From: Thermodesulfobacteriota bacterium
GTDB lineage: Bacteria > Desulfobacterota > BSN033 > UBA1163
Length of the DNA: 64,000 nt
Direction of reading: 5' to 3'
NCBI GenBank assembly: GCA_030017685.1
Contig: JASEHH010000007.1
Location: 1,824 to 65,823 of the forward strand
A model generated the notes under the pieces. That model made no database searches. It saw only the letters and a program-made list of their open reading frames with translations, and was not told where the DNA came from. Position numbers and translations under genes: made by a program. Each line of letters starts with the position of its first letter. Position 1 is the stretch's first letter. Positions 14,507-62,761 of the stretch are shown piece by piece.

Positions 14507-14531
14507 TCCTGGAAAAGGAGGTCAGAGTCTC

Positions 14532-15332: not shown

Positions 15333-16321
15333 AAAAGATCTGGGTAAAGTCGATTCCCTGGAACCAGGAGATCGCTCTCACGGCAATGGAGAGTGGGGCA
15401 GATGGACTCTGGATCCCGGCAGGGATGAGGGAAGAGGTGCGAAAGATAGGCATCATTTCTATCATCGCCGAGGATGGGGATTTGAAATTAGGCCATGATG
15501 TGGTGGAGAAAGAGATTCGGGAGAAGAGAGACGAAGAAGAGATTGTGACCTTAACCCTCTCGAAGAAAGTGGTGGTGAAAAATGGAGACTGGAGGATCAT
15601 CCCTCTGGAGAATTTATTAAGCAGGACCAATAACCTCTTCGTTGAGATCGACAACTTTTTGGAGGGGGAAACGGCACTGGGTATCCTTGAAAAGGGGGTA
15701 GATGGGGTGGTGATCAACAGTCCCGATCCAAATGTGGTGCGGGAGATCATCCACTCCCTCAAGAGAGAGGCCGAAAGATTTGAACTCCTTACGGCCAGGA
15801 TCAAGCAGATTAAACCCCTCGGCCTGGGAGACCGGGTCTGTATCGATACCTGTTCTTCAATGCTCCTGGGCGAAGGGATGTTGGTGGGCAATAGCAGCCA
15901 GGCCCTCTTTCTCGTTCATTCCGAGAGCATTGAGAACCCTTTTGTCAATACGAGACCTTTCCGGGTCAATGCCGGTCCTCTGCATTCCTATATTCGCTTG
16001 GCCGATGGCCAGACGAAGTATCTCTCAGAGATCTGTTCAGGCGATCGGGTTCTGATCGTCAATTTCGAAGGGAAGAGTTTCCCTGCAGTGGTGGGGAGGG
16101 CCAAGATAGAGAGGCGTCCTTTGGTCCTGGTGGAGGCCGAGGAAAACGACCAGGTCATTTCAATTATTCTGCAGAATGCAGAAACGATCAGGCTCACTCA
16201 GCCTTGTGGAAAAGCGATATCCCTGGTCGATCTCAAAGAGGGGAGCGAGGTCCTGGTCTATCGGGAGACATTCGCCAGACATTTCGGGGTCAAGATCGAC
16301 GAGACCATCGTGGAAAGGTGA
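15329..16321 (+). CDS. aroB': 3-dehydroquinate synthase II (archaeal type)
   Basis: 330 aa starting [30 protein letters not shown], characteristic of DHQ synthase II (MJ1249 family). Overlaps neighbouring genes. Confidence 0.75.
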
Positions 16322-21865: not shown

Positions 21866-23551
21866 ATGGACTCCACCCTAAATCTTCCTCCGCTGGCCCG
21901 CCTGCCCCTGTGGATTTGGGATTCCCATGGATTTCTATCACAGGAAAAAAGATGTCTACGGAGGTCGAAAACGGTGAAATCAGAAGTTACGGGGATGGGG
22001 GAAAGGGTTAAGAGGGCGCGAATCGGCCTCAAGGATATGCTGACACTTGTGGATGTGACCCTTGAAGATCAGTTATGGGGTTCTGAGCACCTCTTCCCTT
22101 ATGATGTCTTCGAAGGGCTCCATGAGTTAATGGCGAGGACGATCCATGGAACGAAGATAGAGCGTTCCAGGCCAAAAAGCGGTAGTCAACCCTTTCACAC
22201 CTTCGAGATCCATACGGAAGAAGGGGATACCCTTGGCTATCTCAATATGATTTTTCTCAGAAAACCCATCCCCTGTTATTATTTGGTTTATGTGGAGGTC
22301 CTGGCTTCCTTTCGTGGCCGGGGACTGGGCAATAAGATCCTCAAGGCCTTCAAGGAGTTTGTGGAGAATAAAGAGGCCATGGGGCTTCTGGATAACATCA
22401 TTCCGAACGATGAACCGACCTACGATATTTATTCAAAACTCGGCTGGAAGGATATCGAAGAATGGATCGGCGAAAGCGTGGTCAATGGCGAGAGACACTA
22501 CATGGTCTTCATCCCAGCCTCCCTGGAATCCCTTGACCTGAGAGGCAGGTTGATCAAACTCCTGTTCAAAGTGAAGAAGAAGAGACCGATCATCGACATG
22601 CATGATAACGAGTCCATGGTCAGACGAACGATCTCCGAATTTCGATCGGTGTACGAAACCCTAAAGCACCTCTTCGATTTAGAGCTCTCAACCGGGACCC
22701 CAACACCATTTATGCGTTTCATGTTTACCAAGTTCATCACGAAAGTGCTTGGGTTCAGAAGGCGGATTACCACACTCCTCGGCTATACTGGCGGAGAGTC
22801 CCTTGATCAGATCTCCCTCTCGGAGCAAATCAAATCTCTTCCCCTTCAATCCTATTCTCTGTGGAGTTCGAAGGAAGGGCAGGCTGACCTATGGGGAGAG
22901 GAAAGAGTCATTCGGAACCTGCCCGAGGAGCTAAAAAGGGAACCTACCCTTTATATCGAGAGTCTCTTCTTCTATCGGAGGCCTTATCTCTCTTCCTGGT
23001 TTAGGGAAAAAGAAAAAGGAGAATCTCTTAACTTGAAGATTGCCGATATCCTTGATCTAGGATTCGATCCCACAAGGTTAAGGGAGTTCCAGCATGAAGG
23101 GGTGGAGTATATCTTCGAAAGATCAACTCCTCTTTTTCTATCCTCTATTGAAAAAAGAAGGGGCTTTCTGCCTAAAATCGCCGGGCATACCTCAGGGATG
23201 CGTTTTCGCCATGCCACGGTTCAGGTCAATCCACCCCTTGTCATTCTACAGGACAAAGGGAACGTTTACATCCTCCGCAGGAAATTGGAGGGAATACACT
23301 TCGAGGAAGCACTGGATCAGTTGAGAACTTCCACCCATTTGAAAGAGATGAATCGTACAGGAAGGATCGACCAGGCGATGATCCTGACCGTCCAGGAGAT
23401 TAAAAAAGAACTGAGGAAAAGGTTTGGATCGAACTTCTATGAGGAAATTGAGGATTTAACCTTCTTCATCCCCTGGAATCTTGAAAGTAATATGCCGAGG
23501 GTCACCGTGGATACCGCAAGTATCTTTCTGGATACCCTATGGATTGCTTGA
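21866..23551 (+). CDS. hypothetical protein with a GNAT-acetyltransferase-like segment (FRGRGLGNKIL) plus a large uncharacterised C-terminal region; start uncertain
   Basis: A 561-aa ORF. Only the acetyl-CoA-binding R-x-x-G-x-G motif was recognised. Confidence 0.45.
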   Translation: MDSTLNLPPLARLPLWIWDSHGFLSQEKRCLRRSKTVKSEVTGMGERVKRARIGLKDMLTLVDVTLEDQLWGSEHLFPYDVFEGLHELMARTIHGTKIERSRPKSGSQPFHTFEIHTEEGDTLGYLNMIFLRKPIPCYYLVYVEVLASFRGRGLGNKILKAFKEFVENKEAMGLLDNIIPNDEPTYDIYSKLGWKDIEEWIGESVVNGERHYMVFIPASLESLDLRGRLIKLLFKVKKKRPIIDMHDNESMVRRTISEFRSVYETLKHLFDLELSTGTPTPFMRFMFTKFITKVLGFRRRITTLLGYTGGESLDQISLSEQIKSLPLQSYSLWSSKEGQADLWGEERVIRNLPEELKREPTLYIESLFFYRRPYLSSWFREKEKGESLNLKIADILDLGFDPTRLREFQHEGVEYIFERSTPLFLSSIEKRRGFLPKIAGHTSGMRFRHATVQVNPPLVILQDKGNVYILRRKLEGIHFEEALDQLRTSTHLKEMNRTGRIDQAMILTVQEIKKELRKRFGSNFYEEIEDLTFFIPWNLESNMPRVTVDTASIFLDTLWIA

Positions 23552-23603: not shown

Positions 23604-24767
23604 ATGGATTCAGTCGTCATCGTTTTAAAAGGAAAGGATCCGTATCTCACGACAAAAAAGGCACTTCAACAATTCCCCTTGCCGAATTTGAAGGGAAGAA
23701 GGGCCTTGATAAAACCGAATGCGGCTCGGTTGGCCGTCCCCGGTGAAGGAGTGACAACACATCCCGGGGTGGTTGAAGCCACGATCGATCATCTGAAAGA
23801 AAAAGGAGCAGGTGAGATTGCGATCGGTGAGAGTTGTATCTTTGGAGTGGATCCAGAGCAGGCCTTCCGGGCAACCGGCATGAAGGAGGTTTCGGAAAAA
23901 AAGAGGGTTGAACTCATACATTTAGACCGGGTTGCCCCGATGGAAATCAAAATCCCTGGAGGAAAGGTTCTAAAGAGCATTAGAGTGCCTGCCATCTTAA
24001 AAAAATTCGATTTCATCATCTCAATCCCTGTGATGAAAACCCACATGCATACCCGGGTTACATTAAGCATTAAAAATATGAAGGGGTTATTATGGCGAAG
24101 GGAGAAGGCAAGGCTACATCAACTCCGATGCAATGGGAAAGTTGCTCAAGGGGATAAGGCCCTGGATATTGCCATATCCGATATGGCCTCGGTCTTATTT
24201 CCCCATTTGGCCATCATCGATGGGACAACAGGACTGGAGGGAATGGGACCTGCTTATGGAAGAAAGAAAGAGGCGGGGCTTATCGTTTTAGGGAATGACC
24301 CCGTTTCCGCAGATGCTGTAGCCACACGACTGATGGGGTTTCCCCCGGAAGAAGTACCTCATCTAAGATTGTTAGCAGAAAGGGGACTGGGTGAAATCCA
24401 ATTTTCAAACATTTCAATCAAACCGGGGGATTTTTTAAAGTGGGAGACACATTTTGAGCTTCCACCTTCCAAACTCTCTTTCTCCTTTCCCGATGTCGTG
24501 ATTCACGATGAAGGATCATGCAGTGCCTGTCTTTCAACATTATTTGTTCTTCTTCATCGTTACAAGGATTTGCTTACTCCCCACCGCTTAGGGGATAATA
24601 AAATTCACATTGGCATTGGAAAACATCTGGAGAATATTTCCAGAGGGACGATCTTGATAGGTAACTGTACCCATAAGATGAAAAAGAGGGGCACCTTTGT
24701 CAAGGGATGCCCTCCTGTGGCTTCCGAGGTCCTGAGGTTATTATCCTCATTGGGTGTTTATGTTTAA
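23604..24767 (+). CDS. DUF362 domain protein
   Basis: 387 aa. Its layout (IKPNA...G..THP.VV...KTH....T...KN.KG) is typical of DUF362. Confidence 0.6.
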   Translation: MDSVVIVLKGKDPYLTTKKALQQFPLPNLKGRRALIKPNAARLAVPGEGVTTHPGVVEATIDHLKEKGAGEIAIGESCIFGVDPEQAFRATGMKEVSEKKRVELIHLDRVAPMEIKIPGGKVLKSIRVPAILKKFDFIISIPVMKTHMHTRVTLSIKNMKGLLWRREKARLHQLRCNGKVAQGDKALDIAISDMASVLFPHLAIIDGTTGLEGMGPAYGRKKEAGLIVLGNDPVSADAVATRLMGFPPEEVPHLRLLAERGLGEIQFSNISIKPGDFLKWETHFELPPSKLSFSFPDVVIHDEGSCSACLSTLFVLLHRYKDLLTPHRLGDNKIHIGIGKHLENISRGTILIGNCTHKMKKRGTFVKGCPPVASEVLRLLSSLGVYV

Positions 24768-24780
24768 GGAGGTGCCCTTT

Positions 24781-25815
24781 ATGATTTTTGATAGGCTTTC
24801 CGAGCGGGGGACAAGGTTCCTGAATGTAAAATACCCGATCATTTCAGGAGGGATGACCTGGGTGAGCAATGTGGCTCTCGTGAAGGCTGTTAGCCAGCAT
24901 GGGGTTTTCCCCGTTCTTGCAGGAGGGAATTTGCCACCTGATGCTTTTGAAAAGGAGGTGGATCAATGTCTTCAGGAACTGACCGGACCGTTCGCTGTGA
25001 ATCTGATCACCATTGCCCCAAATTATAAGACGCAGTTTGAAATTCTCCTTTCAAAAAAAGTTCCTTTTGTTGTTTTCGCTGGAGGTATTCCGCGGAAGGT
25101 GGATATCGAGCGAATGAAAAAGGTTGGCAAAAAAACCATGTCCTTTGCCTCGGATGAATCCATTGCCTCACAACAAATCCGTTTCGGTATCGATGCGCTC
25201 CTTCTCGAAGGAAGCGAGGCAGGAGGCCACATTGGCCATGTCTCACTGGTCATCCTTTTACAGCAGGTGCTTTTCCGATTCGATCAGGTTCCGGTTTTCG
25301 TTGCCGGCGGAATTGCGATAGGCAGGATGGTCGCCCATCTTTTGCTGATGGGTGCGGCGGGTTGCCAGCTCGGAACGAGATTTGCGATGAGTGAGGAGTG
25401 CACCGCACACCCGGATTTCAAAAAGACTCTCATGAGGGCCCGCGCCCGACAAGCCATCGCCACACCGCAATATGATTCCAAACTTCCTGTTGTCGCCGTC
25501 CGGGCCATCAAGAACAAAGGGACAGAGGATTTCGGGAGGCTCCAGTTGAGACTCCTCAGAGAACTTGAAGAAGGAAAGATCAGCCGGGAAAAAGCCCAGT
25601 ATGAGGTTGAAAATTTCTGGATGGGTGCGCTTCGGCGGGCAGTGGTCGAAGGAGATGTTGACCATGGATCATTAATGGTGGGACAGAGTGTGGGGTTGAT
25701 TCGCGAAATCTTGCCCATGAGAGATATCGTCGAAAACCTTGTCAGAGAGGCCGAAGAAGAATTGATAAGAATAAAGGAAGGGTTGGATGGAAAATTAGCC
25801 CACGAAACTTCTTGA
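24781..25815 (+). CDS. nitronate monooxygenase / FabK-like (NPD family) FMN oxidoreductase
   Basis: ATG after RBS AAGGAGG. YPIISGGMTWVSNVALVKAVSQHG and GSEAGGHIG motifs. Confidence 0.7.
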   Translation: MIFDRLSERGTRFLNVKYPIISGGMTWVSNVALVKAVSQHGVFPVLAGGNLPPDAFEKEVDQCLQELTGPFAVNLITIAPNYKTQFEILLSKKVPFVVFAGGIPRKVDIERMKKVGKKTMSFASDESIASQQIRFGIDALLLEGSEAGGHIGHVSLVILLQQVLFRFDQVPVFVAGGIAIGRMVAHLLLMGAAGCQLGTRFAMSEECTAHPDFKKTLMRARARQAIATPQYDSKLPVVAVRAIKNKGTEDFGRLQLRLLRELEEGKISREKAQYEVENFWMGALRRAVVEGDVDHGSLMVGQSVGLIREILPMRDIVENLVREAEEELIRIKEGLDGKLAHETS

Positions 25816-32528: not shown

Positions 32529-32744
32529 AAGCTACAGAGTAAAAAGAAAAGATCCTCCTATGGGTATGGTCATTTAATAGTATTTTTCAAGACAAAAAAT
32601 GTCACTATTTTGCATCCCGTAAAATTTTAATTTTTAATTTAGCCAATAGAAATCAAAGGGTTTCCTTATTTTATCTCTTTTGGTATTAAAGTTGCTAATA
32701 TATTAACCAGGATAAATTTTTTTACATTATAGATTTGTCGATAA

Positions 32745-33010
32745 AGCCAAACCACGAGCAATCGTGGGGCGCCTGCCGCCGTAACGGTGGGGGGGCCCGC
32801 CGCTCCAGAAATGTGGAGGCGGGGAAAGCCACGCCTGCGTGCCGAAACGCCTGGCTACCGCAGGCAGGCAAATCAGCATGCGGGAGTGCTTGTAAGCCGA
32901 TACGCCAACCTAACATTGGCAGCACTACGGCATGCAGGCACGGGTCCCTCAGGGAAGCCGGGTTGCCGAAGCGAAAGGAATTTTGCGGCCCGTGGTCTAT
33001 ATTGACACGG
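32745..33010. ncRNA. GC-rich, highly self-complementary intergenic element of unknown class (candidate structured RNA)
   Basis: About 62% GC and roughly 265 nt, sitting in an AT-rich spacer. It contains several nested hairpins (CCACGAgcaaTCGTGG, GCCTGCG..CGCAGGC, GCATGCGGGAGTGC..GCACTACGGCATGC, GCCAA..TTGGC, CCGTGG..CACGGG). There is no credible ORF here. The overlapping ORFs on both strands are artefacts of the GC-rich sequence. Confidence 0.3.
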
Positions 33011-33082
33011 GCTTTTCTCTTTAAGAAACTCTTCAAACAAGAAGCAAATGAAGCAGAATGAACTTCACAAAAGGGGGATAAG

Positions 33083-34192
33083 ATGGCAGAGAATAACGTA
33101 GAAAAAAAAATATCCGTTTTAGAAAATTTTCTACCTGAGCTTGTCCACAGATTAAATAACCATCTGGGGTCTATACTCGGATATGGCCAGCTTTTACTGC
33201 CTAAAATGACTGATTCAGAGTCGAAGAAATATCTGGAGAGGATCATTGAGGAAGCTCATCGCTCATCTCACGTCATTAAAGACCTCGTGGACTTTATAAG
33301 AAAAAGAAAACCACAAAAAGAAGTTATTGATCTTAACGAGTTAATTGAGTCTGTACTTAAAATGAAAATCCGGGAATTAGATGCCAGGAGGATTGAAGTG
33401 GTAAAGGAATTGTCCCCATCTATTCCCCTTACTCTGGTTGATCCGAAACAAATCCAGGTGGCTTTAGCCAATCTTATTAACAATGCTGAAGAGACGATAA
33501 CGGAATTCCACGGATTTGGTGAAATCAGAGTAAAAACCTGTGAGATGGAGGGTCAGATAGAGATAGTTATCTCGGATGACGGACCTGGAATACCAGCAGA
33601 AAACATTTCTAAAATCTTCGACCCCTTTTGTATGACGATTAAGGGTAGAGGGACTGGACTTGAGCTTACGATTTCTCATGACACGGTCATCGAACATGGT
33701 GGCACAATGATTGTGGAAAGTGAATGGGGAAAGGGAACAACCTTCATTATTACCCTTCCGATCGCTGAAGGTGAAAAGAAAAAGGGGGAGGGGAAACGTA
33801 CTGAAATGAATCTAAGGGGACTGAAAGGGTTAGTGATCGATGATGAACGCACATTTCTCGATGTCGTTTCTAAATATTCGGAACTTATGGGATGTAAGAT
33901 CACTACGGCCTTGGATGCCAAGACAGCTTTAGCAAGCATTGAGAGTGAGGACTTTGACTTTGTGATCTGCGATATAAGAATGCCGAAGATGAGTGGAATC
34001 GAATTTTACGGCATTATAAAAGAAAAGAAACCCTCTTTAAAGGACCGAATCATCTTTTCTACAGGCGATGTCCTGAGTGATACGACACGTGAATTCATGG
34101 AATCGATCGACAATCCCTGCATAGAAAAGCCTTTTGACATGAGTGCACTTAAGGAGGTTATTATTAAAATTGTTGGAAACAACAGAAATTAA
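33083..34192 (+). CDS. cytoplasmic hybrid histidine kinase (HisKA + HATPase_c + C-terminal receiver)
   Basis: An H-box (LNNHLGSILGY), ATPase G-boxes (DDGPGIP, GTGLEL) and a receiver domain with a conserved D (DFVICDIRMPKMSG). Confidence 0.8.
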   Translation: MAENNVEKKISVLENFLPELVHRLNNHLGSILGYGQLLLPKMTDSESKKYLERIIEEAHRSSHVIKDLVDFIRKRKPQKEVIDLNELIESVLKMKIRELDARRIEVVKELSPSIPLTLVDPKQIQVALANLINNAEETITEFHGFGEIRVKTCEMEGQIEIVISDDGPGIPAENISKIFDPFCMTIKGRGTGLELTISHDTVIEHGGTMIVESEWGKGTTFIITLPIAEGEKKKGEGKRTEMNLRGLKGLVIDDERTFLDVVSKYSELMGCKITTALDAKTALASIESEDFDFVICDIRMPKMSGIEFYGIIKEKKPSLKDRIIFSTGDVLSDTTREFMESIDNPCIEKPFDMSALKEVIIKIVGNNRN

Positions 34193-34463
34193 GCGAACTC
34201 TTACCAAATCATTCTTATCAGTTAAGGGTATCCTGGCCGTCTTTTTCCTACCAAAATTGTAAACTTTAAAACAAAAATGTCTTTTCCCAGAATAATTTCG
34301 ATTTTTAATTCTTATCCAAAAATTGGATTTTTACTTAGAAATTAAATACTTACGCAATCGAAACCATTAAACCTATTAATTTGGCATATATTTTGCTTTC
34401 AATTAAAGTAAGATAAAACAAATTATAACAAAATGGGGTGAGTTAATGGCGGCAATGTCGGCA

Positions 34464-34667
34464 ATGAAAGATGATAACGTTTTAACCACAGATGAGGCAG
34501 CCCAATACCTGAAAATCTCAAAAGCAACTTTATTAAACCATATCCATCAGAGGAAGATAAAGGCTAAGAAAGTAGGAAGGAGTTGGAGAGTTCTCCAATC
34601 AGAAATATACCGATTTTTAAAGGAAGAGGAAGGAAAATCATATCATAGAAGTGACTTTCGAGATTAG
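34464..34667 (+). CDS. excisionase-family helix-turn-helix DNA-binding protein (start 34446 or 34464)
   Basis: LTTDEAAQYLKISKATLLNHIHQRKIKAKKVGRSWRV fits the MerR/excisionase-type HTH_17 pattern. Confidence 0.55.
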   Translation: MKDDNVLTTDEAAQYLKISKATLLNHIHQRKIKAKKVGRSWRVLQSEIYRFLKEEEGKSYHRSDFRD

Positions 34668-35183
34668 CTTGGGAGTACAAGAATGCAATCGACTATAAAA
34701 GGTATTTAGGGGGACTAAATGCTCTTAAGATTAGCGGCACAAAACTTGCTTCTCTCTCCCTCCTCTCTCTTCTCTTGTTGCCTGCCTAAAACGCACGATC
34801 TCTCTCACCTTAATTGGAATTAAGGGGGTGAGCGAGGAGTTGGAACTATCTGTTTTCATTATATCTAAAAAATTGCTTCATACCTTAAACCTTAATATAA
34901 CAGAAAAAAATAAGACAGTTTTTGTGGAGGAATTCATGGATCGCTTTTTCACCGGGCATTTTTGAACAGATGGGGCAAGATCAGTATTGCTTTGCTTATA
35001 ATCTGAATTGTGATTGTGGCTGGTTTAAGGATTGTTATTTCAGTGAGAAACTATCTATAAGGAAAGAATTCCAAAACAGGACATTCAAGTAAGGCGGCTG
35101 CCTGCCTGAGTTGATCAAAAGATTTTTGGGATGAGACACTTAATCTGTGTAATCAGATAATCTTTTCCCATGGAGAAGACAAA

Positions 35184-36215
35184 ATGAGCGGCGAAGTTAA
35201 AACAAAAAAGTTATTCCAATATACATATCTTCTTTTGATAGGGGGAGTCATAGCGCTACTGGTTGGTTATTTTTGGCTCAGTCAGAAACAACAAAGACCA
35301 GGTGAGCCGCTTGAAAAAGTAACCCTTGCTGAACCAACCCAACCAAGTGCGGGACCTGTATATATCGCTTACATAAAAGGCTACTTCAAAGATGAAGGGC
35401 TTGATGTAACGCTTCAACCTCACACATCAGGAAAGGCCGCCCTCAATGCAGTATTGGAGGGAAAAGCAGATTTAGCAGTTGTTGCAGAAACCCCGATCAT
35501 GTTTGCTGTGATGAGGGGAGAGAAAATATACGCGATAGCTACACTATTTACCTCGGAGAAAAATATGGCGATTATTGCGAGAAAGGATAGGAAAATTTCT
35601 CTACCCGCCGACCTTAAAGGCAAAAGAATTGGAGTGAGTATCGGGACAAATGGAGAGTTCTTCATGGATGCGCTCTTAGTGATGCATGGAATACCTGTGA
35701 AAGAAGTTAAAGCAGTTAGTTTGACACCGGAGGAAATGTTTGACTCTTTAGTAAAAGGTGAAGTTGATGCCGTATCAACCTGGCACCCCCACCTGATCCG
35801 CTTACAAAAGAAATTTGGTGAAAGGGCAATAACATTCTACGGCGATGGGATATATACCTGGACATTTAACGTCGCTGTCATGCAAGAGTTTGCTCATAAA
35901 AATCCAGAAGTTATTCAAAGGGTTCTCCGGACTCTGATTAAGGCGGTAGAATTTATTAGAGAAAATCCAGATGAATCGCGCAAGATCATAGCAGACTATA
36001 TCAGGATGGATGAATCCCTGCTTCGTGAACTATGGGGCATCTATAACTTCGGCATAACGCTGGAACAATCTCTTTTAATAAACTTAGAGAATCAAACGCG
36101 ATGGGCAATAAAGAACAAGTTAACCGATAAAACAAAGGTTCCAAACTACCTTAATTTTATCTATCTTGACGGGTTGAAGGCGGTGAAACCTGAAGCGGTG
36201 ACAATTATCAGGTGA
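35184..36215 (+). CDS. membrane-anchored NMT1/THI5/SsuA-like periplasmic substrate-binding protein (copy 1)
   Basis: N-terminal transmembrane helix followed by an ABC-type substrate-binding fold. It is 100% identical at the protein level to the ORF at 62762..63793 on the minus strand. Confidence 0.7.
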   Translation: MSGEVKTKKLFQYTYLLLIGGVIALLVGYFWLSQKQQRPGEPLEKVTLAEPTQPSAGPVYIAYIKGYFKDEGLDVTLQPHTSGKAALNAVLEGKADLAVVAETPIMFAVMRGEKIYAIATLFTSEKNMAIIARKDRKISLPADLKGKRIGVSIGTNGEFFMDALLVMHGIPVKEVKAVSLTPEEMFDSLVKGEVDAVSTWHPHLIRLQKKFGERAITFYGDGIYTWTFNVAVMQEFAHKNPEVIQRVLRTLIKAVEFIRENPDESRKIIADYIRMDESLLRELWGIYNFGITLEQSLLINLENQTRWAIKNKLTDKTKVPNYLNFIYLDGLKAVKPEAVTIIR

Positions 36216-36221
36216 TGAATT

Positions 36222-38618
36222 ATGAAGATTAGGACCAGACTACAAATTATCGCAATCTTTTCTTTAGCAATAGCCCTTGTAATCGGCTTAGTTCTCTTTC
36301 TGACAGCTCAGAGGGTGAATAAAGAAATTAGTGGGCTAAAAATAGCAGATGAGATAGCAAAAGGGGTATTTGAGCTGAATATCATAACTTATGAATATTT
36401 ATTACACCATGAAGAGCGGATGCAGACACAGTGGCAGTTAAGGCATGACTCTCTAACGAAGTTGCTAACAGGGGAAGAATTCAAAAGTCCCGAAAGGCGA
36501 CTTATTTTAGACAGGATGCATCAGAATCTTGAGAGCCTTAAAGCTCTTTTTTCCCAACTGGTCGAAAATTACAAAAGGCGTGGGAGAAAAGAATCTGCTC
36601 TGTCACGGGAATTAGAAGAGAGATTGGCGGGCCAGTTATTGGTGAAGTCTCAAGCTATGGTTTCTGATGCCTCGCAGTTGGCCGAGGCAAGTCGGGCAGA
36701 GGTAGCAATTGCTCAACAAAGGTCCAGTCTGCTTGTTATGGTGTTTGTTGCAATCATGGCAGCAATTATTGCAGCGGTTTCATTTATGTTTGGCAGAAGT
36801 GTTGTAAAGCCGATCAGGAAGCTCCACGAGGGAACCGAAATCATCGGCGCTGGCAATCTGGATTACAGGGTGGGCACAACCGCAAAGGATGAGATCGGCC
36901 AGCTTTCCAGGGCATTTGATGAGATGATCGGAAAGCGCAAGCGTGCAGAGGAAGAAGTTCGACTCCTCCAAACCATCACATTTGCGATCAGCGAAACCGG
37001 AGATGTTCATTCCGCATTGAAGATTGTGCTCCAGAAGGTGTGTGAAGCTACAGGGTGGATCATGGGGGAGGCATGGGTTCCCAATTCTGATGGGACAAAC
37101 CTCGAATGCAGTCCAGCGTGGTATAGCAGGGTGGAAGGTCTGGAGAAATTTAGAAAGGAATCAGAGAAGTTTACATTCCCTCTCGGGATCGGACTTCCTG
37201 GCAGGGCCTGGTCTTCTAAGAAACCCGTATGGGTGGGAAATGTTACTCTGGATTCGAATTTTCCGAGAGCGGAGATTGCGAAAGGAGTTGGTCTCAAAAC
37301 AGCGATGGCCATTCCTGTTCTCATCGGCGACGAGATTGTTGCAGTGATGGATTTTTTTGTTTTCGAAGCCCGGAAAGAGGATGAACGACTCCTTGAAATC
37401 ATTTCATCGGTTGCCAGTCAATTGGGGTCCCTCATTCAGAGAAAGCGAGCGGAACAAGAGGTAAGAGTCCTGGAAGAACAACTTCGGCAGTCTCAGAAGA
37501 TGGAGGCCATTGGTCGTTTGGCGGGCGGCATTGCCCATGACTTCAATAATCTCCTGACCATTATAAAGGGTTATAGCCAGCTCTCCTTCGGTGAACTCAA
37601 AGAGGGCGATCCCCTGAGAGAAAACATCGAAGAGATCAGAAAAGCGGCGGATCGGGCCGCAGACCTGACCCGGCAACTGCTTGCCTTCAGTCGCCGCCAG
37701 GTGATGGAGGTGCAAGTTCTTGATCTGAACACCGTCTTAAAGAACCTGGATAAGATGCTCCGTCGGATGATCGGTGAAGACATCGAACTGACGACTTTAT
37801 TATTTGAGGATTTGGGAAGAGTCAAAGCCGATCCCGGACAGATTGAGCAGGTGATCATGAACCTTATAGTCAATGCAAGGGATGCGATGCCCCGGGGAGG
37901 AAAACTCACCATTGAGACGGCCAATGTGGAATTGGATAAGGAGTATGCCCGTACTCATGTCGCAGTGACTCCGGGTCCACATGTGATGCTTGCGGTAAGT
38001 GATACAGGGGTGGGAATGACTCCAGAAATCAAGGCAAAGATCTTTGAACCATTCTTTACGACCAAAGAGAAGGGAAGGGGGACAGGGTTGGGTCTTTCGA
38101 CCGTCTATGGGATTGTGAAACAGAGTGGGGGAAATATCTGGGTTTACAGTGAGCCTGGAAGAGGAACAACATTTAAGATTTATCTGCCGAGAGTGGATGA
38201 GCTTGCTGAGGAATTAAGAGTGAAGGTTGAGGGACCAGAACTTCCCAGAGGTAGTGAGACCATTCTCATCGTTGAGGATGATGAAAAGGTCCGGAAACTG
38301 GCTCTAAAGATATTGGAGAAGCAAGGATATGAGGTATTGGAGGCGGGAGGCGGAAATGAGGCTCTTGAGATTTGTAGGGGTTTGGAAAAGCCTATTCATG
38401 TTGTCCTCGCCGATGTGGTAATGCCCGGCATGGATGGTCGCCAGTTTGCGGAGAAACTGAGGGAAGTTTGTCAGGGGTTTAAGGTCCTTTATATGTCGGG
38501 CTATACGGATAATACCATTGCCCACCACGGGATTCTTGATGAGGGGTTGGATTTTATTCAGAAGCCTTTGTCCGTGGATGGACTGGTGAGAAAAGTCAGA
38601 GAGGTGTTGGATAAATAA
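36222..38618 (+). CDS. hybrid sensor histidine kinase (transmembrane - HAMP - GAF - HisKA - HATPase_c - receiver), copy 1
   Basis: 798 aa. The first roughly 240 aa and last roughly 400 aa are near-identical to the 60494..62755 protein. The central GAF-like segment ([15 protein letters not shown]...GIGLPGRAW...[17 protein letters not shown]) is unique to this copy. Confidence 0.85.
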
Positions 38619-38737
38619 TTCTTGAGGGTTTCAACCTAAGCTTTTTTATCATCAGATCAACCTCGATCAACGAGCCCCTATTTGAATTATGGTTTTTCAC
38701 GGTTAGGTTTAGATATTTTTAGCCACGGACATCCGAA

Positions 38738-39097
38738 TCATTTTTTAGAATTTAAAATTTCCTCCACCAAAATCTTCATACTCGAGAGATCTAAGGGTTT
38801 TGCCAGAAAGGCATCGGCTCCTGCTTCTCTGAAAAAAGGTTCTCCCACCCCGGACCCAGAAATTATCAAAATCGATAAGGAAGGGTCGTACCCCTTTAGG
38901 CGTCTTATTAATTCAATTCCATCCATTTTGGGCATCATATAATCTGTTACCACCAGATCGTATCCCTTTTCCTTCACCTTTTTCATCGCCGTCTCACCAT
39001 CTTCAACGGTATCCACCTCATATCCATTTAAAAGAAAATATTTCGATAAAAGATTTCTTATCTCTTTATGATCCCCGACGACCAAAATTCTTTTCAT
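38738..39097 (-). CDS. single-domain response regulator (CheY-like receiver)
   Basis: MKRILVVGDHKEIRNLL...DLVVTDYMMPKMDG. The acidic pocket and the phospho-accepting D were recognised. Confidence 0.8.
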   Translation of the reverse strand: MKRILVVGDHKEIRNLLSKYFLLNGYEVDTVEDGETAMKKVKEKGYDLVVTDYMMPKMDGIELIRRLKGYDPSLSILIISGSGVGEPFFREAGADAFLAKPLDLSSMKILVEEILNSKK

Positions 39098-39238
39098 CAC
39101 GTTAACTCCATTTAACAGATATCTTAAAATTACAACCAATAATTGTAATTGTCAAGAACAAAATACAACCATAGGTTTATGGACATTCTCCTCATGTCCA
39201 CTATAAATGGTGAATGAAATCGTTTAGGGTGATATATT

Positions 39239-39667
39239 ATGATAAAAACTCATAAGGAAATAGGCAGCGAGATCAAGAGAATACGAAAAGCCTTGGGGAT
39301 GTCTCAGATGAAGTTGGCTGAAGGGGTAGGGGTTTCCTTTCAGCAGATCCAGAAATATGAAAAGGGTGTAAATAAAATTTCCATGGAGATGATCCAGCAT
39401 ATAGCGAGGGCTTTGGGTATTTCAGTAAACACATTTTTTGAGAAAGAAAAGGCGCCCGTCATATCAGAACCTCCCATGAAATATTACTCTAAAAAGAAGA
39501 ATTTAATAGATGAGATTTCTTTACCATTAAATCAAGAGGAAATCACGCTGCTCCAACTTTTTCGAAAGATTGAAAACAAGAAAATCAGGGAAGGGCTGAT
39601 CAAGCAATTGAGTGGGATCGTAGAATTAGAAAGGGAAAAAAGCGTATCAAATCATTTAACCAGGTAA
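39239..39667 (+). CDS. XRE-family helix-turn-helix transcriptional regulator
   Basis: IKRIRKALGMSQMKLAEGVGVSFQQIQKYEKG is a canonical Cro/C1 HTH. Confidence 0.8.
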   Translation: MIKTHKEIGSEIKRIRKALGMSQMKLAEGVGVSFQQIQKYEKGVNKISMEMIQHIARALGISVNTFFEKEKAPVISEPPMKYYSKKKNLIDEISLPLNQEEITLLQLFRKIENKKIREGLIKQLSGIVELEREKSVSNHLTR

Positions 39668-39892: not shown

Positions 39893-40341
39893 TTTACTCT
39901 TCTTTTCGTATACCTCCTCCCACCTACCGCTCTTCTAAGGCCTCAGGAGCCTGTCAATCGTTGCCGAACCTATATCAAACAACTTCTTTGCAAGAGCATC
40001 CGATATCCTCAGCTCACCCATACCTCTTAAACCCTCTCTAACTCCGCCTCAATGATTGGCCTCAGTCTCTGCTCGCAGGAATGGCCAAAGACTTTCCACA
40101 GATTGAATGCATATCCACCCTCCACCTGTCCATGTAAACCAACTTCCATCGAAAGGATTTGGATTACATTTTAGATGATTTAATGCGGTTTGTTGACAAA
40201 TTATTTGAATTCCATTATTATTGGTCAAAATAATTTGGGTTAAAAATGGTTTAAGTTTTTTTTACTGTAGAGTGAAAGCTACAAACTATGCAGAACTACC
40301 CGATTTTTAAAGATTATCATAACTGTATCTAAAAGAGAAAC

Positions 40342-40569
40342 GTGTACCGCAACTTTGAAGAAATCTTGACAAAGGCAAAAGAACGAGGCCCTTGTAGGGT
40401 TTCCATCCTCTTCCCTGATGACCCGGATATTATGCGGGTGGCAGTAGACGGAATGAGGGAGGGACTGATTGAGCCTGTTTTGGTGGGCCATTATAAGCGG
40501 ATCAAGGCAATAGCCCAGGAGGCAAATTTACCCCTAAAAAATAGGTGCTTCCTGTTTTTGAATGGGTGA
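40342..40569 (+). pseudogene. duplicated 5' fragment (about 65 codons plus upstream region) of the phosphate butyryltransferase gene at 49630
   Basis: 40300-40545 is about 93% identical at nucleotide level to 49588-49830, including about 45 nt upstream of the start. The reading frame ends after 75 codons (...NRCFLFLNG). Confidence 0.6.
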
Positions 40570-44840: not shown

Positions 44841-45799
44841 ATGGAGCAGAAACTTGCATATTATGAGATTAGGGATCAAATCGCTATTGTCACCATCGAT
44901 CATCCTCCCATGAATGCCTTGGATGCGGCCACGAAAGAGGCCATTGTCGATGTATTCAAGGAGCTTGATGACCGGAGACAAGAAATCAGAGCAGTCATAT
45001 TACACGGGGCAGGAGAGAAAGCGTTTGCCGCGGGGGCTGATATCAAGACATTTTTGGAATTAAAACCCGGCACGGCCAAGAGACGTATTTCCCGTACTCA
45101 TCAAATTTATTCCATGGTCAGAGCCGTCCAAATTAGCTCGAATTCTTATGACTACCCCTTGAAATTATTACCTTTTTGGACAAGTTTTGGCTGTTTTGAA
45201 AATCAGGTTTCCTTTTTCTTTTTTTATGTATCCATTATGCTGTCCAAAATAGGCCGTTTTTAAAAACCTAATTTGGACAAGAGTGTTCCATGGTAGAAAA
45301 TTTTGAGTGGCCTGTGATCGCTGCGATCCATGGTTTTTGTTTAGGTGGGGGTCTGGAACTGGCACTCTGTTGCGATATCCGTTACGTGGAAGAGACTGCC
45401 AAATTAGGTTTTCCTGAAGTCAATCTATCCGTTTTTCCGGGAAACGGAGGGATATGGCGCTCTATGTATCATATCCCTCTGGGGAAATTGAAGGAATTGG
45501 TTTACAGCGGCGAGATGATCGATGCGATGGAGGCATTCAGGCTCGGTTTGGTGGAAAAGGTTGTTCCACCGGGGCAGGTGATGGTCGCTGCCATGGAGCG
45601 TGCCGCCAAGATTATGGAGAAAGGTCCTTTGGCCGTGGCAGCGGCTAAGAAAGTGATCAATCGGGGCAGAGACCTCTCACTTCAACATGGACTGGAACTT
45701 GAGTCTGAACTCTGGGCCAATCTAACAGCCACAGAAGATATGAAAGAGGGCGCCCGGGCCTTTATCGAGAAGAGAAAACCAGAATATAGAAATCGATAA
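44841..45799 (+). pseudogene. enoyl-CoA hydratase/isomerase (crotonase) gene interrupted by a 167-bp MITE
   Basis: The two ORFs (44841..45263 and 45290..45799) together encode one crotonase-fold protein. The fold appears when 45119-45294 is removed: ...THQIYSMV|ENFEWPVIAAIHGFCLGGGLELAL.... Confidence 0.7.
45119..45285. mobile_element. 167-bp MITE (ends CAGAGCCGTCCAAATTAG / CTAATTTGGACAAGAGTG) with 9-bp target-site duplication TTCCATGGT
   Basis: Direct repeats TTCCATGGT sit at 45110-45118 and 45286-45294. Imperfect terminal inverted repeats with an 11-bp perfect core GTCCAAATTAG. There is no ORF of useful size inside. Confidence 0.7.
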
Positions 45800-47124: not shown

Positions 47125-47358
47125 ATGTTCTTCGAACTGAATGATGAGCAGAAGGAGTTTCAAAGAAAGGTTCGGGAAATTTACGAGAGAGAAGTAGGCC
47201 CTCTGGTCGAGGAGTACGGGAAAAAGGAGGCCTTCCCGATTCAACTCTTCCGAATACTGGGGGAAGAAAGACTTCTGTGTCTCCGGTGTCCCGAGAAATA
47301 TGGCGGGCCTGGTTTGGAAAAGATTTCTGAATGTATCTCGAGGGAGTTGGGGCTTTAG
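47125..47358 (+). pseudogene. N-terminal remnant (about 75 aa) of an acyl-CoA dehydrogenase gene
   Basis: MFFELNDEQKEFQRKVREIYEREVGPLVEEYGKKEAFP is a typical ACAD N-terminal domain start. The ORF stops after 77 codons. Confidence 0.5.
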
Positions 47359-47368
47359 GGGGAAGAGG

Positions 47369-48217
47369 ATGGATTTTGAATTATCCGATGAGCAGAAGGA
47401 TGTTCAAAAAGCGGCGATGGAGTTTTCCAAAGGGGAGTTCGATCCGGATCTTGCCCTGGAACTGGATCGGAACGGGCAGTTCCCAGAATTGATATGGAAG
47501 AAGGCCTGCCAGTTAGGATTCATTGGGATTCATTATCCTGAGGAGTTTGGAGGTCAGGGGTTGGGCCTCTTTGAGACTCTTCTGGTCATCGAAGCATTCT
47601 GCAGGGTTGACTCTGGAATTGGGGGCGCTCTGAGCACTGTAGATTTGGGCTCAGAGGTCATTCTAAAATTCGGTTCCCATGAACAGAAAAAAGATTTTCT
47701 TCTTCCCTTGGCAAGAGGAGAGAAAAGGTTGAGCGTTGCCTTTGCCGAATCGGAAGATGGGAAAGACCTCTCCTCCGTCTCCACTGTTGCAGAGAGAAGG
47801 GGTGAGGGGTACCTCATCCATGGGAGAAAAAGGTTTGTGCTCAATGTTTCTTTATCAGATGCCTTCATCAATCGTTGCAAGGAGCCCAAAGAAGGGTGGA
47901 TCACTTTGATTGTAAAGAAAGAAAATGGTGGGATGGAAGTCCATCCTATTGAGAAGATGGGGTTGAGGATGATTCCATTTGGAGATCTTCACTTCAAAGA
48001 AGTACGGGTGCCCCTTGAGAGTCGGGTGGGACGTGAAGATGAAGGGAGGGTCCATGCTCACCACTGCCATCAGGCGATGGAACTCAAAAGCGTTGCTAAA
48101 TCTTTCTCCTTCCCGCCCTACTCTAAATTATTTGGGGGGAAGTGTCTCACTTTCATTGGCACAGAGGGTAAGCGGCGGGGAATAAGCCCTAAAGTGATTC
48201 AAGGAGGTACAAGATGA
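47369..48217 (+). pseudogene. acyl-CoA dehydrogenase lacking a recognisable C-terminal catalytic domain (truncated or degenerate)
   Basis: It starts MDFELSDEQKDVQKAAMEF with good N-terminal and middle domains (GFIGIHYPEEFGGQG...AFAESEDGKD). After about 230 aa the sequence loses ACAD character (..GRVHAHHCHQAMELKS..) and ends at 283 aa. Confidence 0.45.
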
Positions 48218-49344
48218 TTGATTTTTCGTTTACTAAAGAGCAAGAGGAGTTCAGGGAAAAGGTAAGGGAGTTTGCCCAGAAAGAGGTAGAGCCAAGAAGG
48301 AAAGAATGGGATAGAGAGGGAAAATCGGCCCTGCCCATAAACGAGAGGCTTGCAGCATGGGGCCTTTTAACAGCGGATATGGACAATATCACCAGGGGCA
48401 TCCTTACGGAAGAGGTCGCTTATGTGGACTTTAACAGCGCCATGCCCTTAGTGTGGGCTACCATGCCATTTGTTTTACATCAACTCCCCGGAGTGCCGGA
48501 AGAGGTTAAAAAGCCGATCCAGGAAGGGATACTGAGTGGCAAGAGCTTTCTTGCGCTCTGTTTCGCTGAGTCGGGTGCGGGTACGGATATGGCCGGAATC
48601 AAGACCTCGGCAGTGAGGGATGATGAAGGATGGGTCATAAACGGCACCAAGAATACCATTAGCTGGGTGAATGCCGATTACTATTTTGTCTGTGCCAAGA
48701 CGGGAGATGAGGAAGAAGGGATATGGGCCCTAACCAATTTTCTGGTGCCTGCCTCTTTTCCCGGTGTCAGCAAACCCAAGATATGGAAGGATATGGGATC
48801 TAAGGGGGCGGTTCGAGGTACGGTCAATTTTACGAATGTGAGGGTCCCGTTGAACTATATGATCGGGGAGATGGGCAAGGGTTATCTTTTGGCTGCAGAG
48901 TTCTTTGACACCAATCGTGCGTTTATCGGCCTAAAATGCATTGGAGCGGCCCAGGCCTCTGTGGACGAGTCATGTCTATATGCCAAAAAGAGGGGAGTTA
49001 TGGGGAAGCCTATCGCCGGATATCAGGCCATCAGTTTCCCCCTTGCCGAGGCCCAAACCCTGCTCGAAGCAGCCAGGTTGTTGTGCTACAAGACACTCTG
49101 GATGGCGGATAAGGGAGTACGGCACACCACCGAAGGGGCTATGTGCAAGTGGTGGATTCCGGAGATCACCTTTGAGATCGTGCGCAAGGGCCTCCTTACA
49201 CATGGTCAGTATGGCTATACCGAAGAACTTCCTTTTGAACAGAGGCTGAGGGACATCCTCGGCTGGCAGATAGGTGATGGCACGGCGGAACCGTCCAAAC
49301 TCCTGATTGCCAGGAGTATGATGGGCAAAGAGTATGTGGGCTAA
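48214..49344 (+). CDS. acyl-CoA dehydrogenase (intact)
   Basis: 376 aa and complete through the C-terminal domain (...ILGWQIGDGTAE). Confidence 0.85.
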   Translation: MIDFSFTKEQEEFREKVREFAQKEVEPRRKEWDREGKSALPINERLAAWGLLTADMDNITRGILTEEVAYVDFNSAMPLVWATMPFVLHQLPGVPEEVKKPIQEGILSGKSFLALCFAESGAGTDMAGIKTSAVRDDEGWVINGTKNTISWVNADYYFVCAKTGDEEEGIWALTNFLVPASFPGVSKPKIWKDMGSKGAVRGTVNFTNVRVPLNYMIGEMGKGYLLAAEFFDTNRAFIGLKCIGAAQASVDESCLYAKKRGVMGKPIAGYQAISFPLAEAQTLLEAARLLCYKTLWMADKGVRHTTEGAMCKWWIPEITFEIVRKGLLTHGQYGYTEELPFEQRLRDILGWQIGDGTAEPSKLLIARSMMGKEYVG

Positions 49345-49629
49345 ATAAAAGGATAAGGAATGACCGTTTTTGGCTACGTAGTGGAATTAAGTTAAGCAGA
49401 TTTTGTGTGGGGTTTTTTTCATCCTGATTTAATCTAATCCTAATTAATGCCAAAAACTAAAAATTGAGGGAAAGGGGGTTATTGTCCCCCTGGAGATTTA
49501 TTCAACTAACATTTGGACAGTAGTGGTATTCCATTATTATTGAATAAAATCATTTTAGAGTAAAACTTGCCAAGTTACCAGAACTATTTAATTTTTAAAG
49601 ATTATCATAACAGGATCTAAAAGAGAAAC

Positions 49630-50511
49630 ATGTACCGCAACTTTGAAGAAATCTTGACAAAGGCAAAAGAACGAGGCCCTTGTAGGGTTTCCATCCTCTT
49701 CCCTGATGACCCGGATATCATGCGGGTGGCAGTAGATGGAATGAGGGAGAAACTGATTGAACCGGTTTTGGTGGGCCATTATAATCGGATCAAGGCAATA
49801 GCCCAGGAGGCAAATTTGCCTCTAAGCAAAATAGAGATTCGGGAAAAGAAAGATCCTCAGGAAGCGGCCAATTTATGTTTGGATATGGCGAAGAAAGGGG
49901 AAGTTACCTTCGTGGTCAAGGGCAATATTTTGACGACATATCTTTATAAGGCATTGATCAGGATTACCAAGAAGTTCTCGCTTGATCAGATACCTTGCGC
50001 ACTCTGTTTCCATCACATCGCGGGTATTGAGAAGATCTTTGTCATTACTGACGGTGGAGTAAACATCCACCCCAATCTCGAAACGAAAAAGAAGATTCTC
50101 GCCAACGCCATAAGCGTATTACAGAGGCTGGGTTGTAAACGACCTCGAATAATGATCCTTGCCGCCCCTCGCTTCCTTGATGAAGCCTCTTCTTATTCTC
50201 GGGATGCTGACATTCTTCGAAGACTGAGCCTGGGGGGAGACCTGGGCCAGTGTGAGATAGATATTGCTAAAAATCTCCACGAGGCCTTCCCTGACAGGTC
50301 CATACGAACGGAGACATTCCCTGACGTTTTTCTGGTTCCCAATATCGAAACTGGAAACATCCTGGTCAAGAGTATTGATCATCTGGGCATAGGCATACGC
50401 CAATGTGTGACGGTCGGAGCAGGTATATTTGTCCTTACCCCCTCACGATCAGATGGATATGAGGCCCGTATGATGAATTTATCACTGGGAATCGTCCTTG
50501 CCACATCATGA
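49630..50511 (+). CDS. ptb: phosphate butyryltransferase / phosphotransacylase (PTA_PTB family)
   Basis: 293 aa in the PTA_PTB fold, followed by a second ptb-like gene and a butyrate kinase. Confidence 0.75.
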   Translation: MYRNFEEILTKAKERGPCRVSILFPDDPDIMRVAVDGMREKLIEPVLVGHYNRIKAIAQEANLPLSKIEIREKKDPQEAANLCLDMAKKGEVTFVVKGNILTTYLYKALIRITKKFSLDQIPCALCFHHIAGIEKIFVITDGGVNIHPNLETKKKILANAISVLQRLGCKRPRIMILAAPRFLDEASSYSRDADILRRLSLGGDLGQCEIDIAKNLHEAFPDRSIRTETFPDVFLVPNIETGNILVKSIDHLGIGIRQCVTVGAGIFVLTPSRSDGYEARMMNLSLGIVLATS

Positions 50512-52938: not shown

Positions 52939-53370
52939 ATGCATCCCAACTCATTCTTATTTTTTGGAAGGGATTTAAGCAAGTTTAGAGAGGTGATGGA
53001 AGGGTCAATCCTTCCCCCCAATGCTTTACTTCTGGGTTTAGATGGGGCTGTGCTTTTATCGATACCGGAGTGGAAAGGGTTTCCCAATTTTTTTGAAGAA
53101 GGGAATAAGGGTTTTGACCATCTTGCCCACTGGGAAAACCATTTCCTGGGTGGAGAGCTCTTCTGCATAGTGCTTGATATCAAATGGAGTAATGGCCATC
53201 ATTTGAAATTGGGTTTCATCTATCCCCACTACAGAAGGATTCTGTTTCACATCTGGAAAAATAAGAGGATAGGCCTTCTGGATAAGCCTTTGAAGAATGG
53301 GACCCCGGATCCTAAATCAAGGTGTATCCTTGTAAAAAACCTTCCGGCCTGGAGCACCGAGGTGGTTTGA
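52939..53370 (+). CDS. hypothetical protein
   Basis: A 143-aa ORF with no recognised family. Confidence 0.35.
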   Translation: MHPNSFLFFGRDLSKFREVMEGSILPPNALLLGLDGAVLLSIPEWKGFPNFFEEGNKGFDHLAHWENHFLGGELFCIVLDIKWSNGHHLKLGFIYPHYRRILFHIWKNKRIGLLDKPLKNGTPDPKSRCILVKNLPAWSTEVV

Positions 53371-62755: not shown

Positions 62756-62761
62756 AATTCA

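Follow-up and report, generated by a model that had tools for sequence, protein, structure and literature searches.

How do two sensor kinases in one genome come to have nearly identical input halves, unrelated centres and long-diverged output halves? The question is raised by two hybrid histidine kinase genes in a 64,000-nucleotide (nt) stretch of DNA, called the window below, which is taken from a single contig (66,493 nt) of a metagenome-assembled genome (MAG) of an uncultured sulfate-reducer-type bacterium of the Thermodesulfobacteriota. The first kinase, HK1, occupies positions 36222-38618 of the plus strand (798 amino acids), and the second, HK2, occupies 60494-62755 of the minus strand (753 amino acids); both open reading frames (ORFs) lie exactly where an earlier note on this DNA had placed them. 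That note read the pair as a natural case of domain shuffling, in which the central sensor domain had been swapped on an otherwise near-identical scaffold. Our comparisons indicate that the recently moved or homogenised unit is not the central domain but the N-terminal input module, together with an adjacent binding-protein gene.

The predicted domain order is the same in both kinases: a transmembrane segment (TM1), a periplasmic four-helix bundle, a second transmembrane segment (TM2), HAMP, a central cassette, HisKA, HATPase_c and a receiver (REC). Hydrophobic windows start at approximately residues 3-15 and 161-178 in each protein, with an extracytoplasmic region of about 135 residues between them. 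The input module corresponds to codons 1-243 (36222-36950, plus strand, in HK1; 62027-62755, minus strand, in HK2), and Pfam assigns HAMP to residues 190-236 of HK1. The cassettes that follow differ. That of HK1 spans residues 244-407 (36951-37442, plus strand) and contains a GAF_2 domain (residues 261-406, E 7.8e-13, 49.2 bits against a cut-off of 28.6), whereas that of HK2 spans residues 244-362 (61670-62026, minus strand), with residues 253-364 matching PAS (residues 253-359, 44.9 bits, cut-off 22.6, E 1.3e-11), PAS_9 (44.2 bits) and PAS_4 (43.3 bits). Neither centre matches the Pfam family of the other and the two segments cannot be aligned, which bears out the suggestion that they are unrelated.

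The remaining portions (37443-38618, plus strand, and 60494-61669, minus strand) carry, in HK1 and HK2 respectively, HisKA (PF00512; 43.7 and 41.4 bits, cut-off 26.9) with the H-box AHDFNNLL in both, HATPase_c (PF02518; 91.1 and 88.4 bits) and a receiver (PF00072; 72.5 and 67.0 bits) in which the acidic pocket and phospho-Asp motifs, VEDDE and L(A/T)DVVMPGMDG, are present. Judged by these domains, both proteins are hybrid histidine kinases. Each kinase gene is preceded, at a distance of 6 nt, by a gene for a 343-residue NMT1/THI5-like binding protein of the SsuA/TauA/ThiY group (copy 1, 35184-36215, plus strand; copy 2, 62762-63793, minus strand; PF09084, 136.2 bits, cut-off 20.5, E 2e-39). 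The protein has a single N-terminal hydrophobic stretch (residues ~9-34), a putative membrane anchor without a lipobox cysteine. The two copies are identical at 343 of 343 residues, so that each kinase is indeed paired with the same anchored partner, as had been noticed earlier.

Divergence along the two loci

Two inverted repeats connect the kinase loci. The first pairs 35102-36952 (arm A, plus strand) with 62025-63875 (arm B, minus strand) over 1,851 nt at 98% identity, which cannot be due to chance; each arm takes in a promoter-proximal region, the binding-protein gene and kinase codons 1-243. The second pairs 37443-38622 with 60490-61669 over 1,180 nt at 77% identity. Unalignable sequence of ~490 nt in HK1 and ~355 nt in HK2 separates the two. 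Upstream of arm A, homology continues around an indel through an older, more diverged duplicated stretch (34804-35101, plus strand), which resembles 63869-63999 at 88-92% identity and contains, in copy A only, an insertion of 166 nt (34876-35041); on the B side, the homology runs off the end of the window.

The 35 differences between the arms are strongly clustered. None falls within the 1,062 nt of 35112-36173, followed by 24 in the next 371 nt (36174-36544), none in the 279 nt of 36545-36823 and ten in the 124 nt of 36824-36947. Under uniform divergence, perfect tracts of this kind would be expected with probabilities of ~4e-12 (1,062 nt) and ~9e-6 (279 nt). The binding-protein genes differ at three synonymous positions, all within their last 42 nt, whereas the synonymous rate of the neighbouring kinase codons predicts ~32 (P ~8e-11). 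The identity tracts are longer than the flanking divergence predicts, synonymous sites included, which is the pattern left by gene conversion.

Within the kinases, residues 1-243 are identical at 230 positions (95%), in agreement with the earlier observation of near-identity up to about residue 240, and synonymous divergence (dS, Nei-Gojobori) is ~0.11. By the same method, the 392 codons of transmitter and receiver give a saturated dS of ~1.18 and a nonsynonymous divergence (dN) of 0.129; the resulting dN/dS of ~0.11 shows that both cores are under purifying selection. From the H-box to the C terminus, the kinases are 79.2% identical over 361 residues, short of the 85% proposed in the earlier note, a value that only the HATPase domain attains. 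With C-terminal halves that are 79% identical in protein, 77% in DNA and saturated at synonymous sites, the scaffold outside the input module can hardly be called near-identical. This three-tier divergence, combined with the clustering of the differences, defines three age classes: very recent conversion tracts; an older duplication, diverged by ~7%, of the upstream region, binding-protein gene and kinase N terminus; and anciently diverged output halves.

Base composition also varies between the parts, with G+C of 42% in the binding-protein gene, 45% in the input module and 41% in the PAS cassette, versus 49% in the GAF cassette, 49-50% in the cores and 47% in the window as a whole. This is a weak hint that the binding protein, the input module and the HK2 PAS may have come together from one source.

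Output halves, linker junction and competing histories

Database searches place the two cores in a very large and highly conserved family. In module-wise BLAST comparisons, the HK1 core is 87.0% identical and the HK2 core 82.7% identical to that of P0078, a kinase of a related organism, recovered there in three independent assemblies (L002-L004); HK2 is 81.1% identical to P0087, and HK1 and HK2 are 79.3% identical to one another. A neighbour-joining tree of 32 cores joins HK1 to P0078 in 64 of 100 bootstrap replicates and HK1 to HK2 in one, and resolves the local clade as (HK2,((P0078,HK1),(P0087,P0092,P0081))). All four members of this clade from outside the window have dCache_1 and HAMP at their N termini. 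The cores of P0079 and P0082, which carry the same input module as HK1 and HK2 (in P0079 at 83% protein and 91% nucleotide identity), fall in a different clade, so the module and core phylogenies disagree. Among the cassettes, the HK1 GAF has its nearest relatives in P0080 (77%) and P0078 (66%), and the best relative of the HK2 PAS within the retrieved sets is ~40% identical. By these comparisons, the output halves are old paralogues rather than each other's closest relatives.

The earlier note had recommended a nucleotide-level alignment to locate recombination breakpoints. Such an alignment yields one recent junction only, at approximately 36936-36952, within an RKxAEE linker that follows HAMP; what would have been the second breakpoint is simply the point from which any two kinases of this large family can be aligned once more. 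The motif RK(R/Q)AE(E/Q) marks both borders of each cassette, starting at residues 239 (RKRAEE) and 407 (RKRAEQ) of HK1 and at residues 239 (RKQAEE) and 362 (RKRAEE) of HK2, and P0078 contains three copies that flank its GAF and its PAS. Across the family, the pattern [RK]K[RQK]A[ED][EQDA] occurs in 160 of 201 members, against one of 201 after shuffling, with a mean of 1.56 copies and as many as five; in 91 of these proteins it lies exactly 31 residues before the H-box. The N-terminal junction of HK1 and the C-terminal junction of HK2 have an exact 11-nt run in common (CGCAAGCGTGC) and agree at 19 of 22 positions overall. It is plausible that these conserved, register-fixed linker codons act as in-frame recombination sites. 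The 'DIT' motif is a comparable module boundary, and engineered sensor swaps, among them PAS exchanges such as YF1, reportedly work at the equivalent linker position; those exchanges were designed, whereas the one seen here is natural.

These results bear directly on the history in which the binding-protein/kinase pair was recently duplicated as whole genes and the central cassette was then replaced through two breakpoints. It would explain the identical domain order, the single linker motif flanking both cassettes and the gap-free alignment of the C-terminal halves over 392 residues, but about 180 database proteins also align to these cores without gaps, and the alignment is therefore not specific to HK1 and HK2. 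Because core dS (~1.18) so far exceeds that of the N terminus (0.11), sister grouping is recovered once in 100 bootstraps and P0078 is closer to each core than they are to one another, replacement of a central cassette in a near-identical duplicate is unsupported, and we consider this history extremely improbable. The other part of the shuffling proposal, that one periplasmic partner and input is joined to different cytoplasmic co-sensors, is consistent with all of our findings.

The related organism provides a syntenic comparator. In L002, a hybrid kinase without a sensor region, an excisionase-family helix-turn-helix (HTH) gene, P0078 (dCache-HAMP-GAF-PAS-core) and a convergent panC follow one another. 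The left flank in common with the window comprises the first two of these genes (33083-34667, plus strand; sensor-less kinase, 33083-34192; HTH gene, 34446-34667), and window positions 32591-34635 match L002 5953-7997 at 83% nucleotide identity, a match that closes with the stop codon of the HTH gene, shortly ahead of P0078. Similarity begins again at window position 36936 with the GAF region (L002 9081-9595, 67%), precisely where homology to HK2 ends (36947-36952), and extends to the HK1 core (37468-38622 against L002 9967-11121, 86-87%). This last value falls in the range of other orthologous matches (83-90%), and the flanks diverge by 11-17%. In position, about 2.3 kb of the window, consisting of spacer, binding-protein gene and four-helix-bundle/HAMP module, corresponds to the dCache-HAMP of P0078; HK1 also lacks the PAS cassette that P0078 has between two RKRA(D/E)E linkers. 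Other L002 genes are found in inverted order in the window, including those for NMO (24665-25800) and a molybdopterin oxidoreductase (11901-14107). The simplest reading of this gene order would be at least one inversion with end-points in the kinase genes, plus recombination between paralogous cores.

The history that we favour, with moderate confidence, is that HK1 and HK2 are two binding-protein-dependent hybrid kinases that have one extracytoplasmic input in common and differ in everything downstream of HAMP, the input module having been copied between loci and subsequently homogenised. Most of this history is borne out by the comparisons above. The output halves are old paralogues from a clade otherwise bearing dCache sensors. 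A copy of the binding-protein gene and kinase codons 1-243 would have passed between the two kinase loci through homologous or ectopic recombination, its 3' end falling in the conserved RKxAEE linker that follows HAMP. Since then, conversion between the arms would have homogenised the copies, leaving the perfect tracts of 1,062 and 279 nt, and the arms or the cores probably served as well for at least one inversion of the ~25 kb that lie between them.

Several points weigh against this account. The panC flank of P0078 is collinear with HK2 and not with HK1 (L002 9927-12015 corresponds to window 61684-59600, 79%), and over the first 180 nt of the core and at nt 900-990 P0078 resembles HK2 more than HK1, making the relationship a mosaic. 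For the direction of the module replacement, the argument is one of parsimony, drawn from five members of the clade and a single comparator genome. The middle segment has the orientation given by a MAG assembly, in which consensus polishing could also inflate perfect repeat tracts. As to function, contact between binding protein and kinase is proposed by analogy with TorT-TorS and XylFII-LytS, and the window yielded neither a histidine phosphotransfer (Hpt) protein nor a DNA-binding response regulator.

Some of the same evidence could be accommodated if both kinases were old binding-protein-coupled paralogues that never had dCache, with 5' halves kept alike by concerted evolution and dCache-HAMP gained in the L002 lineage. 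Perfect tracts embedded in sequence diverged by 6-8%, alongside more diverged upstream homology with an indel, are what repeated conversion on an older duplication would leave, and the input module is found with both GAF and PAS chains in distant relatives. We nevertheless judge this to be unlikely, given that dCache is present in all four other members of the core clade and that the closest carriers of the input module, P0079 and P0082, have cores from a different one. An assembly artefact is a further concern. The source is a MAG contig, an exact look-up finds neither kinase in any other assembly, and repeat mis-joining, strain mixing or polishing could have generated the inverted arrangement, the 25-kb orientation or the perfect tracts. 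The 1,062-nt perfect inverted repeat exceeds short reads and inserts and cannot be bridged by them, so the orientation of 36953-62024 may be arbitrary; flipping it would make the locus collinear with L002 on both flanks. Such a flip would alter neither gene, however, and both ORFs are intact and under purifying selection. Moreover, the 130 nt next to the junction contain ten differences, by which each N-terminal variant can be tied to its own centre. The 21.9-kb stretch that separates the kinase 3' ends is unique, and its one internal repeat, 270 nt at 91%, is too short to cause mis-joining, leading us to regard an artefact as rather improbable.

Inverted repeats of 1.85 kb that are 98% identical and lie inside coding sequence also invite a functional interpretation, in which a reversible 25-kb inversion would re-pair the upstream regions and input modules with the GAF or PAS half and flip the catabolic gene cluster enclosed between the kinases. 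The two upstream regions do differ by the 166-nt indel, and the flanks of a single ancestral-type locus (L002) are here divided, one beside each copy, an outcome expected of inversion through the repeats; yet one fixed historical inversion, or an arbitrary assembly orientation, accounts for the synteny equally well. With no recombinase gene nearby, and with input modules that differ by 13 residues only, so that the isomeric proteins would be almost the same, a recombination switch seems very improbable. We likewise give little credence to an active form of it, a RecA-driven 'kinase shufflon' that flips the 25-kb segment and thereby re-pairs control regions and input modules with the two output halves, which is quite improbable; if it were true, the population would carry both wirings of one periplasmic signal.

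The input module and the surrounding genes

A sequence search of solved structures with the input module returned HAMP-level matches only, and we therefore turned to comparison of folds. The AlphaFold model of residues 1-245 (predicted local distance difference test score 86.8, from a 21-sequence alignment) shows TM1 running into a four-helix periplasmic bundle, followed by TM2 and HAMP, with predicted helices at residues 3-62, 65-84, 90-120 and 126-209. Its best Foldseek matches are to the sensor-TM-HAMP structure of NarQ (5jgp; E 7.8e-6, TM-score 0.57-0.60), and further matches include LytS-N from the XylFII-LytS complex, QseE from the QseG-QseE complex and Adeh_2942. The solved structures nearest to the binding protein (3qsl, TauA, THI5, SsuA and ThiY) are only distant relatives. 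Its scores against the SsuA family TIGR01728 (130.4 bits, cut-off 163.5) and the taurine equivalog (68 bits, cut-off 304) are below threshold, and a sulfonate ligand should therefore not be assumed. Copy 1 has the HTH gene and the kinase as its neighbours; ABC transporter domains were absent from the scanned ORFs of the window, a set that does not comprise every ORF, and the far side of copy 2 is outside the window.

Pairing of the two components extends well beyond this genome. An NMT1-family binding-protein gene lies directly upstream of a kinase with this input module in at least ten loci (L001, L005, L007-L009, L011, L012 and L014-L016) from MAGs of Nitrospirota, Desulfobacterota, Alphaproteobacteria and Gammaproteobacteria. 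At L016 (7762-11467), two tandem NMT1-type genes precede a 488-residue kinase with the module that has neither central cassette nor receiver, an architecture that shows how the same input module can work with a minimal transmitter. The periplasmic module alone (190 residues) retrieves 1,132 clusters at E <= 1e-10. Among 75 representatives, HAMP is present in 74, PAS in ~25, GAF in ~9 and REC in eight; the transmitters are of the HisKA, HisKA_2, HisKA_3 or HWE type, with one SpoIIE and one MCP output. A scan of the genome collection with the binding protein found nothing closer than 66-71%, and a metagenome scan with the input module found three loci only, the best at 61%. Our literature search on NMT1-type binding proteins paired with kinases found nothing relevant, and a 2021 review of binding proteins in signal transduction, which covers thirteen binding-protein families, does not mention NMT1 or SsuA (PMC8050422). 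The pairing of such proteins with four-helix-bundle kinases thus appears to be uncharacterised so far, and may constitute a widespread fourteenth family of binding-protein signalling systems.

Upstream of the kinase locus, the sensor-less hybrid kinase (HisKA-HATPase-REC, 369 residues) is a conserved neighbour of this kinase clade. Its counterparts are found in L002 (6443-7579, 81% protein identity), beside P0078, and in L005 (7572-8720, 66%), near P0082, a kinase with the input module. It may be a partner in a multi-kinase relay. At 27-28% identity to HK1 and HK2, it can be ruled out as a third paralogue or the remnant of a displaced kinase. The small excisionase-family HTH gene (TIGR01764, E 6e-13) is the next gene before the kinase locus and keeps this place in L002, with no integrase or other mobile-element gene seen near it. 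Further upstream, 32591-33083 is GC-rich and devoid of a convincing ORF, is conserved in L002 (5953-6443, part of the 83% match) and contains no Rfam family at the gathering threshold and no tRNA or tmRNA. We found promoter-like sites around copy 1 to be no more frequent than in shuffled sequence (12 versus 12.2). A mobile-element origin of the 'island' was considered and rejected on finding no tRNA or tmRNA, no Rfam match, no transposase or integrase in the scanned ORFs and no dispersed short repeats at the breakpoints.

The unique 21.9-kb segment between the kinase 3' ends (38623-60489) starts with a stand-alone REC gene (38738-39139, minus strand) and an XRE-type HTH gene (39239-39667) and ends with panC (59611-60471). 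Neither of the first two qualifies as a conserved partner of the kinases, as related loci give generic receiver matches of 30-40% for the former and none for the HTH. The segment also holds a cluster for acyl-CoA beta-oxidation and phosphotransacylase-kinase functions, a MarR gene, an ADP-forming acyl-CoA synthetase, UbiA and a radical SAM/SPASM gene; position is all that links the kinases to this acyl-CoA catabolic cluster. A direct repeat within the segment (40202-40537 and 49521-49825) consists of 270 nt at 91% identity plus a 35-nt extension, and covers a promoter-like region (TTGACA-17-TATTAT, 40193-40221), a leader and the first ~65 codons of a PTA_PTB-like gene at 49630. The upstream copy, with a GTG start, is truncated and lies ahead of a 3-hydroxyacyl-CoA dehydrogenase operon (40796); the repeat may represent a duplicated regulatory region. 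Enoyl-CoA hydratase is divided between two ORFs in different frames (44841-45263 and 45290-45799), which cover positions 2-78 and 85-250 of the ECH_1 profile with ~160 nt of unrelated sequence between them; the split could reflect a decayed gene (pseudogene), inserted DNA or a mistake in the assembly. An acyl-CoA dehydrogenase gene that lacks the C-terminal domain (47300-48217) is directly followed by a complete one (48214-49344).

Elsewhere in the window, ORFs 21866-23551 (561 residues) and 52939-53370 (143 residues) have no Pfam or NCBIfam match. The genes at 14433-16321 encode a DeoC-family aldolase and 3-dehydroquinate synthase II, an archaeal-type entry to the shikimate pathway, and lie upstream of EPSP synthase, chorismate synthase and the trp operon. 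These shikimate and tryptophan genes mark the region as housekeeping chromosome, and not plasmid or phage.

Proposed signalling model and known systems

Drawing on analogy, we propose that a ligand in the periplasm is bound by the anchored NMT1/SsuA-like protein, which then docks on the NarQ-like four-helix bundle, and that the signal would travel from there through TM2 and HAMP to the coiled-coil linker. There, the cytoplasmic GAF of HK1 or the Cys/His-containing PAS of HK2 would add a second condition before autophosphorylation, such that one periplasmic input may be gated by two different cytoplasmic sensors. The CckA-like HisKA/HATPase core would autophosphorylate and hand the phosphate to the fused receiver. 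The HK2 PAS belongs to a widespread subfamily with a conserved tetrad. In 26 relatives, C296 is either Cys or His and H301 either His or Tyr; C310, in an invariant 'CP', is kept in all 26 and H354 in 24. This conservation suggests a candidate metal or cofactor site, and hence possible redox or metal gating.

Stimulation of four-helix-bundle kinases by binding proteins is established (PMC8050422). In TorT-TorS, XylFII-LytS and LuxP-LuxQ, a dedicated periplasmic binding protein is encoded beside a membrane kinase (PMC8050422); here, too, a binding-protein gene adjoins the kinase gene. The four-helix bundle of LytS and the helical bundle of TorS are, like the corresponding region of HK1 and HK2, helical periplasmic domains without an obvious ligand pocket, and TorS is likewise a hybrid kinase. 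HK1 and HK2 thus display features of binding-protein-dependent kinases, namely conserved adjacency across genomes and a predicted helical periplasmic sensor domain. Distinctions include a binding protein whose N-terminal anchor helix looks uncleaved and whose family, NMT1/SsuA/TauA, is not one of the thirteen in the review, and the addition of a cytoplasmic GAF or PAS; the pairing in HK1 and HK2 is known from genes and predicted fold. NarQ/NarX provide the best structural match to the module from TM1 to HAMP, at a sequence identity of 13-17%, but NarQ binds nitrate directly, needs no binding protein, has a HisKA_3 transmitter and lacks a receiver. The transmitter-receiver halves find their best NCBIfam matches among CckA-type hybrid kinases (E 1e-132 to 1e-135). 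Identity with CckA itself (NF046020 and NF046026) is ruled out by scores of 443 and 453 bits against an equivalog cut-off of 1000, and by a different N-terminal architecture and context.

The module borders of HK1 and HK2 may be compared with the signalling helix (S-helix) and the PAS C-terminal linker, which serve as module boundaries (Anantharaman et al. 2006, PMC1592074): the cassettes here likewise end in a conserved helical linker, set at a constant distance from the H-box. For engineering, the locus and its relatives offer a natural demonstration that GAF, PAS or no cassette at all fits between the same HAMP and the same class of dimerization and histidine phosphotransfer (DHp) domain at the RKxAEE register. 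The analysis also draws attention to a gene combination that is widespread yet missing from the catalogue of binding-protein-dependent receptors: a NarQ-like four-helix-bundle kinase together with an anchored NMT1/SsuA-like binding protein.

Shuffling of domains within expanded histidine-kinase families is not new, protein-level evidence for it dating from 2006 or earlier. The Desulfovibrio kinases, from a related phylum, similarly form a large family of near-alike cores with varied N-terminal signalling domains; the same upstream domains are kept in only 19.9-29.1% of closest paralogues, and the DNA-level mechanism that produces new in-frame combinations was left unexplained (Alm et al. 2006, PMC1630713). 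Compared with that protein-level study, the HK1/HK2 locus provides a nucleotide-resolved instance, with a junction, conversion tracts and a syntenic comparator that has a different input. A single junction in a fixed-register linker, fresh conversion tracts and a syntenic relative with another input together support plain homologous recombination, at conserved sequence coding for the linker, as the mechanism of shuffling. The locus is a clean example of a known phenomenon and, at the same time, a further case of binding-protein-dependent kinases, with a binding-protein family that is so far uncharacterised in this role.

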